Of a stretch of DNA of 20,790 nt, positions 10,440-11,930 are shown piece by piece. A program made the translations under genes and the position numbers. This stretch comes from a virus (lineage: Duplodnaviria > Heunggongvirae > Uroviricota > Caudoviricetes), in the IMG/VR virus record IMGVR_UViG_2695420685_000016, positions 1 through 20,790 of that record, one strand, 5' to 3'. Position 1 is the first letter of the stretch; every line of letters starts with the position of its first letter. The notes below the pieces were generated by a model. That model had not been told where the DNA came from. It did no database searches and was given only the letters and a program-made list of their open reading frames with translations.

Positions 10440-10683
10440 CTGAAAAATAATTCTTTAAAATACCTGACATGTAATACAGAAAAAACACAAAACCATACCT
10501 TAAATAAAAACCTGATTATCAAGCAGATATGCATGGATAAACTACAAGACGAGATATAAACCACCCTGTATTTAAATAAACAATAAACAACATCAGAAAA
10601 ATAATTCTGCTCTATGGTTTAATTCAAAAATATCATTTATACTTTTCAGAACATCACCAGCAAGGCATAAACAAGGAAAGTAA

Positions 10684-11019
10684 ATGAAGTGGATTGTGAT
10701 TGATACAGTTATCCAGCCATCATGCGGAATATCTTTTTCAGTCATATGGAGTAAAATAAAATTAATAATCTGGTATCAATCGGATGCTTTCTTACCTCCT
10801 GAAAGTATATTTACACTGACTCACACAGGCATCATGCTCAATAACAAAGTGCTACCTGTAACCATTTACAACGTAGTACCATTCAATAAAACATTCTGGA
10901 ATTTAATCAAAAACAGCCAGGAATGCCCTACAAATACAGATAACGTAATGAATGAATGCTTTAATAACCGTTGCACTCTGCAAATATGTCCTTATGGACT
11001 AAAACAACAAAGTCCATAA
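10684..11019 (+). CDS. Hypothetical AT-rich cargo protein (111 aa, Cys-containing)
   Basis: ATG with AAGGAAAG RBS, preceded by about 240 bp of very AT-rich DNA; strand opposite to the late operon; hairpin CCTTATGGACT-loop-AGTCCATAAGG overlaps the stop. Confidence 0.4.
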
Positions 11020-11026
11020 GGAGTTT
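10988..11026 (+). terminator. Stem-loop at the 3' end of the plus-strand cargo gene
   Basis: 11-bp inverted repeat TCCTTATGGAC...GTCCATAAGGA with an A-rich loop; no clear T tract, so function as a terminator is uncertain. Confidence 0.3.
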
Positions 11027-11055
11027 ACTCACATCTGACAAAATCAATATAAACA

Positions 11056-11077
11056 GCCCCTCCGGAGAGGGGCTGGA
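11056..11077 (-). terminator. GC-rich hairpin, candidate terminator for minus-strand cargo transcripts
   Basis: CAGCCCCTC-CGGA-GAGGGGCTG perfect stem; on the minus strand it is followed by TTTATATTGATTTT. Confidence 0.4.
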
Positions 11078-11466
11078 GAGTGGCGCTATGTGCCATTGCA
11101 TGGTGCCGGGTGCCTCCCGGTGAATTCAGTACCAGCACCTGAATCCGCGATTATCCCATATACCTACTCGCTGATTGCCCCTCCGCACAGGGGGATTCAC
11201 CATGCCAGTTTCTTTTAACAAACTCCCCGCAAACCAGACAACAGTCAACCGCCTGAATTGTGAAGTATTTAAAAATTTCTCCCGCTAACTGATACCCGGC
11301 TAACAGTCTGGCGTTTTCTTTTTCAGCAACGGGAAAGCAACAACCACCACACCCGCCACCAGCACACCGTCAGCCAGCACTGACATTATCCGGCTGCTGC
11401 AATGCCACTCACAAAAACAGTAAGCAATCACTTTTTACCGTAACAAGTGATAATCCAGATATGTAT

Positions 11467-11820
11467 CTACCCCAGATGAGTAATCCGAAGTTCATCCATA
11501 CCACAGGTCCTGGCTATTCTGTTGTACTCCTGAACAAGAGCAAATAATTCTGAATTAGCAACCATGAACTCATCGCAAACCCTCTGTATAGCATCACTAT
11601 TCAGAATAATAACGTCTCTTCCCGAAAGACGATCAGGAGTACAGAACAAAACTGTCAAACGGCTGAAGGCCTTTGCTCGTCCTGCATTGACTATATCAAT
11701 ACGCTGCCTAAGGATGAAACACCCCGACGCCTCATCAATATTCACTCTACCCACACCATATGAATGATAAATATTTAATGCTGAAAAAACCATTAGACCG
11801 TATAACAAATATTCAATCAA
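11467..11820 (-). CDS. Hypothetical AT-rich cargo protein (108-117 aa) at the position occupied by stx in Stx phages
   Basis: ORF immediately downstream of the two tRNA genes; listed start is TTG, first ATG at about 11793; low GC relative to flanking phage genes; no recognisable motif. Confidence 0.4.
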   Translation of the reverse strand: MIEYLLYGLMVFSALNIYHSYGVGRVNIDEASGCFILRQRIDIVNAGRAKAFSRLTVLFCTPDRLSGRDVIILNSDAIQRVCDEFMVANSELFALVQEYNRIARTCGMDELRITHLG

Positions 11821-11930
11821 TACTTAACAGAACTTTTATTTTTGACAAACATATAATATTTTCAACAATATCCTGAGCCAGGTATATTTCAGTATAAGGC
11901 TCTGCCGGAAGGAATCTGGAAGAATGAATA

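Follow-up and report, generated by a model that had tools for sequence, protein, structure and literature searches.

The closest described relatives of the locus reported here are the iraL locus of uropathogenic Escherichia coli and the stx2 locus of Shiga toxin (Stx) phages. IraL of strain CFT073, a homologue of IraM (58.9% identity), was shown to bind RssB and to stabilise sigma-S during log phase; it contacts RssB in a manner unlike that of other anti-adaptors, the 5′ end of its mRNA has been mapped, and the distribution of the gene has been described. The two relatives differ in regulation, iraM responding to Mg2+ starvation and iraL being active in log phase (Hryckowian et al. 2014, PMC4045071). 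In phage 933W, stx2AB occupies a slot with an ileZ/arg transfer RNA (tRNA) block upstream and the small RNA (sRNA) STnc100 downstream, followed by the start of the nanS-p esterase gene and the holin gene. The STnc100 copy has been placed 75 nucleotides (nt) after stx2 (PMC12370729); STnc100 copies are transcribed in enterohaemorrhagic E. coli, one having been verified by Northern blotting (PMC5331693), and EcOnc27, an sRNA that binds Hfq, overlaps the STnc100 copy that follows stx2B (PMC12711010). Here, we compare these systems with the interval 10440–11930 of a 20,790-nt stretch of viral DNA (IMG/VR record IMGVR_UViG_2695420685_000016; hereafter the window), which represents a defective lambdoid E. 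coli prophage with its late genes read on the minus strand.

A preliminary description of this interval had depicted an AT-rich cargo locus at the stx position, made of two convergent open reading frames (ORFs) without recognisable family, separated by hairpins and perhaps coding for toxin, defence or anti-defence functions. That observation is partly confirmed, and its interpretation partly supported, by our analysis. The interval is a genuine AT-rich cargo at the stx slot. The picture of two unknown ORFs split by hairpins does not hold, however: the interval is very probably a two-slot accessory (‘moron’) region within the late operon, holding the stress regulator gene iraL. The locus is thus an ordinary one, essentially the published iraL locus and largely already known, and the item left over is an unannotated gene for a protein of 92 amino acids (aa).

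Both ORFs were found at the coordinates first given for them. The GC content was 0.279 in the flank 10440–10683, 0.345 in the plus-strand ORF (10684–11019) and 0.303 in 11746–11930, against 0.49 for the whole window, which bears out the AT-richness of the region. The gene order also stood: in the phage direction, the antiterminator gene Q is followed by a tR′-like terminator, a tRNA with a CAU anticodon, tRNA-Arg(UCU), the cargo interval, an ORF with a DUF1737 domain, a class II holin gene, a DUF1327/YdfR gene and the lysozyme gene.

The plus-strand gene is iraL

The Cys-containing ORF of 111 aa on the plus strand (10684–11019), antisense to the phage late operon, had been taken for an unknown gene; it encodes IraL, a member of the IraM family whose action as an RssB anti-adaptor has been characterised by experiment (PMC4045071). 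Its product scored 162 bits on the NCBIfam model NF007393 ‘anti-adapter protein IraM’ (cutoff 121), with residues 1–110 of 111 covered, and matched the solved IraM chain (PDB 8TWD) at E = 9.2e-32. It was identical to CFT073 IraL at 110 of 111 residues (Met89 in the window is Leu in CFT073) and, over 107 residues, 62% identical to K-12 IraM. In EC958, a strain of sequence type 131 (ST131), the identical segment is annotated as IraM by RefSeq. K-12 IraM (b1160, adjoining prophage e14) belongs to the same family, with the Cys residues and the N-terminal half conserved, but lies in another genomic context, and window IraL has four additional C-terminal residues.

The CFT073 gene also stands at the same prophage position, as the potB prophage of that strain shares the order Q, tRNAs, DUF3927 gene, STnc100, iraL (on the opposite strand), DUF1737 ORF and holin gene with the window, at 97.8% nucleotide identity over 2 kb. 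CFT073 iraL (c1429) is transcribed and thermoregulated, being induced at 37 °C. Judging from its 99% identity to the allele studied in PMC4045071, window IraL would be expected to bind RssB and stabilise sigma-S.

The published 5′ end of the iraL transcript, ACATCACCAGCAAGGCATAAACAAGGAAA, found an exact 29-nt match at 10651–10679, the only one in the window (0 expected by chance) and 33 nt before the ATG. It places the transcription start site (TSS) at 10651 and the 5′ untranslated region (UTR) at 10651–10683 on the plus strand, as given by 5′ rapid amplification of cDNA ends. Upstream, a three-way alignment of the window, EC958 and CFT073 identified the −10 element TATACT within the AT-rich promoter and regulatory region (10440–10650, plus strand; GC 0.28), and both this element and the TSS sequence are the same in CFT073. 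The identity of iraL, its published 5′ end and the match to CFT073 together lead us to assign the 244-bp AT-rich flank as the iraL promoter and regulatory region, and the earlier suggestion that cargo at this site could be expressed from promoters of its own accordingly fits iraL.

Two slots are collinear with the stx2 locus of 933W

The window was compared with loci from phages 640R1 (L002), PPwrbA_EH2201 (L007) and 933W (L012), from E. coli 07-4299 (L005) and CFT073 (L011), from a Citrobacter braakii prophage (L013) and from IncF plasmids (L009 and L010), among others. Against 933W, four anchors were found: the tRNA block (window 12224–11923, 933W 1581–1880), STnc100 (11263–11097 and 3249–3426), the start of the esterase gene L0105 (10425–10317 and 3689–3797) and the holin gene (9997–9713 and 6262–6546). 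As these anchors are collinear, window 11922–11273 stands exactly at the place of stx2AB, and the proposed analogy with the stx position therefore holds at the level of single bases.

The upstream edge of this first slot is tRNA-Arg(UCU) (11931–12007, minus strand), the 933W tRNA-block homology stopping at window 11923. Its downstream edge is STnc100 (Rfam RF02076; 11045–11234, minus strand), which covered model positions 1–206 of 206 and scored 132.4 bits (gathering score, 47); in the 933W locus, the same model maps to 3278–3483, 75 nt after stx2B. The second slot reaches from STnc100 to the esterase start and contains iraL. At its downstream edge lies the DUF1737 ORF (67 aa; 10236–10439, minus strand; Pfam PF08410, E = 4e-17), which matched phrog_2036 over its full length and the N-terminus of phrog_143 (634 aa). 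This ORF, 84% identical in nucleotide sequence to the beginning of 933W L0105, corresponds to the N-terminal part of the esterase gene (nanS-p/YjhS type) carried by Stx phages; the body of the esterase does not follow it, and the EC958 homologue is flagged as truncated by RefSeq.

Whereas the slot of 933W holds an AB5 toxin, that of the window holds an unrelated 92-aa protein, predicted to be helical, and a 43-aa membrane peptide. The two loci agree in having an element on the opposite strand that abuts STnc100 in the same convergent arrangement: the AsxR sRNA in 933W (3485–3537 of that locus) and iraL in the window.

The hairpins described between the two ORFs exist, at 11075–11054 and 10989–11022, but the DUF3927 gene and the full-length STnc100 had been overlooked. 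The first hairpin is the intrinsic terminator of STnc100 (11054–11075, minus strand), with a 9-bp GC-rich palindromic stem and a T-rich tail. The second is a perfect 12-bp inverted repeat (10989–11022) that spans the iraL stop codon and is likely to form the 3′-end hairpin of the iraL mRNA.

STnc100 follows other cargo in five further loci and can be present several times within one late region, with five copies in E. coli 07-4299 (one at 1667–1879 and four in tandem at 3639–4618) and two in phage 640R1 (4165–4358 and 4634–4822). It has the appearance of a repeated linker or terminator behind each cargo gene.

Occupancy of the slots varied among phages. In the 933W-type phage PPwrbA_EH2201, slot 1 is empty: where the homology to the tRNA block stops, less than 60 bp of non-homologous sequence precede that to STnc100. 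At 3938–4045 of that locus, STnc100 and the esterase gene come almost immediately after the last tRNA, which makes it a useful reference for the unoccupied site. Phage mEp460 shares with the window the 92-aa gene, the DUF3927 gene and part of STnc100, and then carries a gene with a TolA C-terminal domain, while phage 640R1 shares the DUF3927 gene, STnc100 and iraL but is without the 92-aa gene. These comparisons indicate that the cargo modules shuffle independently. The anatomy puts iraL and stx in adjacent cassette slots whose limits are the late tRNAs, STnc100 and the beginning of the esterase gene, and this explains the swapping of stress regulators, toxins and sRNAs among lambdoid prophages.

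A conserved 92-aa gene stands at the stx position

The minus-strand ORF of the first slot had been given as 108–117 aa. Upstream of a GTG codon at 11745, however, relatives carry indels of 1–3 nt, some of them not multiples of three, and the homologue in E. coli 07-4299 has four in-frame stops; the real gene is therefore 11745–11467 on the minus strand (92 aa). Two divergent homologues (in loci L004 and L005) share this start: both are intact, have exactly 92 codons, begin with the same GTG followed by AATATTGATGA and are related to each other and to the window gene at 67–72% nucleotide identity. In the three pairwise Nei–Gojobori comparisons between the window, L004 and L005, dN/dS was 0.26–0.27 at a dS of 0.9–1.1, with zero indels, and third-position changes were about twice as frequent as changes at first or second positions. 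The protein also matched phrog_2873, a family of unknown function, over its full length (E = 5.1e-58). On this pattern of substitution, we conclude that the ORF is a real, conserved gene. The claim that neither ORF resembles any family thus fails for the plus-strand ORF, which is IraM/IraL in NCBIfam, and is half right for this one. Known function is found for one ORF of the pair, by way of iraL; the other is intact and conserved in relatives, so its standing as a gene is unaffected.

In front of the gene lies an AT-rich, non-coding leader (11746–11930, minus strand; GC 0.30), whose last ~75 nt are common with the cassette of a divergent homologue, homology to L005 starting at 11822. It contains a candidate promoter, TTGATT-17-TCTAAT.

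The family is small and taxonomically narrow. Clustering at 90% identity gave 20 clusters, and a search of 1.84 billion proteins gave 21 representatives; its members come from E. coli, Shigella, Citrobacter and IncF plasmids, the distant relatives of 91–106 aa being found in Citrobacter and on the plasmids. Identical or near-identical predicted proteins number hundreds in public assemblies, and copies at only 60–80% nucleotide identity occur in ~128 genomes, two of which were fetched. AlphaFold2 predicted a helical hairpin, with helices at residues 3–35 and 50–81 joined by a conserved TPDR loop (predicted local distance difference test score of 83). Beyond the bare phrog_2873 entry, the start codon, the purifying selection and this predicted hairpin are documented here.

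Searches of Pfam, NCBIfam and PADLOC gave no match for the 92-aa protein or for its 117-aa extended version, and the protein is without a signal peptide, an enzymatic motif or a toxin-like fold. With low confidence, we propose that it is a small regulator or inhibitor that binds other proteins in the cytoplasm, and neither an enzyme nor a toxin.

Three more specific ideas were considered. A likeness to GapR/UPF0335 (DUF2312) was dropped: the best PDB profile match had E = 0.05 and covered helix 1 only, the hhalign probability was 15.6%, and DUF2312 was found by Pfam search in 0 of 9 family members. A role as an AfrS-type co-activator (a partner of AraC proteins) was suggested by one homologue that follows an AraC-family gene and by plasmid relatives near PapB/FocB, but the neighbourhood is inconsistent across loci. 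IraP, like this protein, is small and helical. An IraP-like anti-adaptor function had no support from Pfam, searches of which gave the 92-aa protein no family.

On IncF plasmids (L010 2509–4586; L009), a distant 91-aa branch of the family has insertion sequences on its flanks and, nearby, fimbrial genes together with a gene for a fimbrial regulator of the PapB/FocB type.

The remaining gene of the first slot (11300–11431, minus strand) encodes a DUF3927/TciB-like peptide of 43 aa with one hydrophobic segment (Pfam PF13064, E = 1.7e-27; phrog_1470 ‘TciB-like’, E = 7.8e-13), which carries one and the same WP accession in the EC958 and CFT073 annotations. In JLK-2012, a tciB–STnc100 segment with 93% nucleotide identity to the window DUF3927 gene and STnc100 occupies the same place after the tRNAs, but there a TerB-domain gene, tciA, is present, whereas the window is without tciA and has the 92-aa gene instead; the first ~10 codons of the window DUF3927 ORF also differ from those of JLK-2012 tciB. 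The names tciA and tciB come from the annotation of phage P1, and Tci functions are by annotation only; a literature search on ‘TciB’ returned unrelated papers only.

In the Citrobacter braakii prophage (5001–6063 of that locus), a relative with 95 aa is encoded between Q and the holin gene. A TerB-domain gene comes immediately after it and a DUF3927 gene next, just ahead of the holin gene; these two are the same tciA–tciB pair as that after the tRNAs in JLK-2012. This single observation, from a locus search with one family protein that returned one Citrobacter locus, hints at a possible three-gene module of the 92-aa family, the TerB gene and the DUF3927 gene. That the 92-aa gene is a functional effector directed at the host or the phage, perhaps a regulator working with a TciA/TciB membrane module in lysis timing, superinfection exclusion or host stress, is a speculative reading that we consider unlikely.

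TerB-domain modules have been linked to stress and phage responses. The Citrobacter arrangement also speaks for the idea that the two ORFs are novel cargo with a toxin, anti-phage defence or anti-defence role, like stx, as do the position of the window cargo, truly in the stx slot, and a 92-aa gene of narrow distribution to which a function could not be assigned. Against this idea, the 111-aa ORF encodes the host stress regulator IraL; the features of the 92-aa protein are those of a generic helical hairpin without the marks of a toxin; and PADLOC gave no match for the 92-aa or DUF3927 proteins and, for iraL, only a sub-threshold match to a restriction enzyme (E = 0.026, 11 bits). With no credible PADLOC match for any of the three, the toxin, defence or anti-defence role put forward earlier is unsupported, and we regard it as very improbable.

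Expression of the two slots

Under the two-slot reading, slot 1, from tRNA-Arg(UCU) to STnc100, carries the 92-aa gene and the TciB-like peptide gene, both co-oriented with the late genes. Its transcription could start at a promoter-like site just upstream of the CAU tRNA (12222–12194), whose position agrees with that of 933W pT, at the possible leader promoter, or by Q-dependent late read-through; the terminator scan placed none in the stretch from the tRNAs to STnc100, and the transcript would end at the STnc100 terminator. Slot 2, from STnc100 to the esterase remnant, carries iraL in the opposite orientation, with a sigma-70 promoter of its own in the 244-bp AT-rich flank. IraL would then bind the adaptor RssB, so that RpoS would not be passed to ClpXP and sigma-S would be raised in growing cells. 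On this model, iraL would be a lysogenic-conversion function, a gain to the host rather than to the phage. As iraL has already been published as a determinant of raised RpoS in growing uropathogenic E. coli, the window adds no new biology here.

Several observations weigh against this account. The promoter of the tested CFT073 allele is not intact in the window: in the three-way alignment, window and EC958 lack 1 nt in the predicted −35 hexamer near 10622 (GGTTTACATTC in CFT073, GGTTTA-ATTC here) and share two substitutions in the 5′ UTR, beside the ribosome-binding site (10680–10681). A −35 mutation was also reported in the second iraL copy of the ST131 strain JJ1886, its effect on expression being left open (PMC4045071). 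The STnc100 fold was no more stable than shuffled sequence (z = −1.5), and because its stability is unremarkable the assignment depends on the covariance-model match and on published work. Fold searches with the 92-aa protein, including Foldseek, returned only generic helical hairpins, none at E < 0.3, so its function is constrained neither by fold nor by family. Among the 36 full-length matches listed of the 1,183 genomes with the segment, PGAP calls the 92-aa gene in none, and among the three close alleles (window, EC958 and CFT073) three of four substitutions in the gene are non-synonymous.

The last two points would suit a minus-strand ORF that arose by chance in AT-rich non-coding DNA, leaving iraL, the DUF3927 gene and STnc100 as the only functional elements, and the GTG start and weak Shine–Dalgarno sequence of the window allele point the same way. 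This explanation is largely refuted by the three lineages described above, which have kept exactly 92 codons without an indel despite their divergence and give a dN/dS of 0.26–0.27 at a dS of about 1; the existence of distant 91–106-aa relatives, one relative annotated as a coding sequence and the PHROG match (E = 5e-58) argue against it further, and we consider it extremely unlikely. The 92-aa gene of the stx slot is better described as a conserved gene systematically overlooked by annotation. CFT073 and EC958 are among the genomes in which it is unannotated, which is why it is absent from the CFT073 RNA-seq table.

The state of the promoter bears instead on the possibility that the locus is decaying and silent in the window strain, its iraL being a duplicate with a down-mutated promoter while another iraL, at a different place in the genome, is active. 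The Q gene (12328–13149, minus strand; 273 codons, Pfam PF03589 on both halves) supports decay, as a codon-by-codon comparison revealed a nonsense codon at codon 102 (12846–12844), TAA in the window against TAC (Tyr) in EC958 and CFT073. Q-dependent late transcription has therefore probably been lost, and the late operon is probably not inducible in the window strain, that is, probably dead; loss of Q would leave only autonomous promoters active. The reduction of the esterase gene to its DUF1737 remnant, the −35 deletion and a DUF3927 gene without the TerB-type tciA partner present in JLK-2012 and Citrobacter fit the same picture, as do the closest genomes, which are ST131 genomes with two matching places each, and the two iraL copies of JJ1886 (ST131; PMC4045071). 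Against silence, the iraL, DUF3927 and 92-aa frames are each unbroken, hundreds of ST131-type genomes carry the segment at 99.7% identity, and the −10 element, TSS and ribosome-binding site of iraL are kept. We regard a silent duplicate as a minority possibility, though one to be taken seriously, and still favour a two-slot accessory region with iraL as its identified cargo. Expression of the window iraL copy is uncertain and may be weak owing to the −35 deletion; as this deletion is in a widespread ST131-type copy, it bears on whether ST131 strains really have two active iraL genes.

Neighbouring features

Between Q and the tRNAs, the terminator scan found the tR′-like intrinsic terminator at 12228–12247 (minus strand), consisting of AACCCGCCGCTGAGCGGGTT and then TTTTATTG; 933W carries annotated terminators at the equivalent place. 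The tRNA with the CAU anticodon (12109–12184, minus strand) was called Met by ARAGORN; in RefSeq, the identical gene is given as tRNA-Ile (ileZ-like). The CFT073 prophage, in which Q is intact, differs here: Q is separated from the slot by an IS200 element and by one more tRNA, its third, neither of which is present in the window; at 21568–22159 of the CFT073 locus, the element is an IS200C with a match to the STnc490 RNA.

Two features lie elsewhere in the window. A sok antitoxin RNA (Rfam RF01794, 112 bits) was found at 15174–15349 on the minus strand, next to a toxin gene of the hokD type that is annotated in the homologous prophages of EC958 and CFT073. Behind the lysis cassette, transfer of EC958 coordinates placed an iss/bor ‘increased serum survival’ lipoprotein gene at 7978–8271 on the plus strand, a moron on the strand opposite to the late genes.

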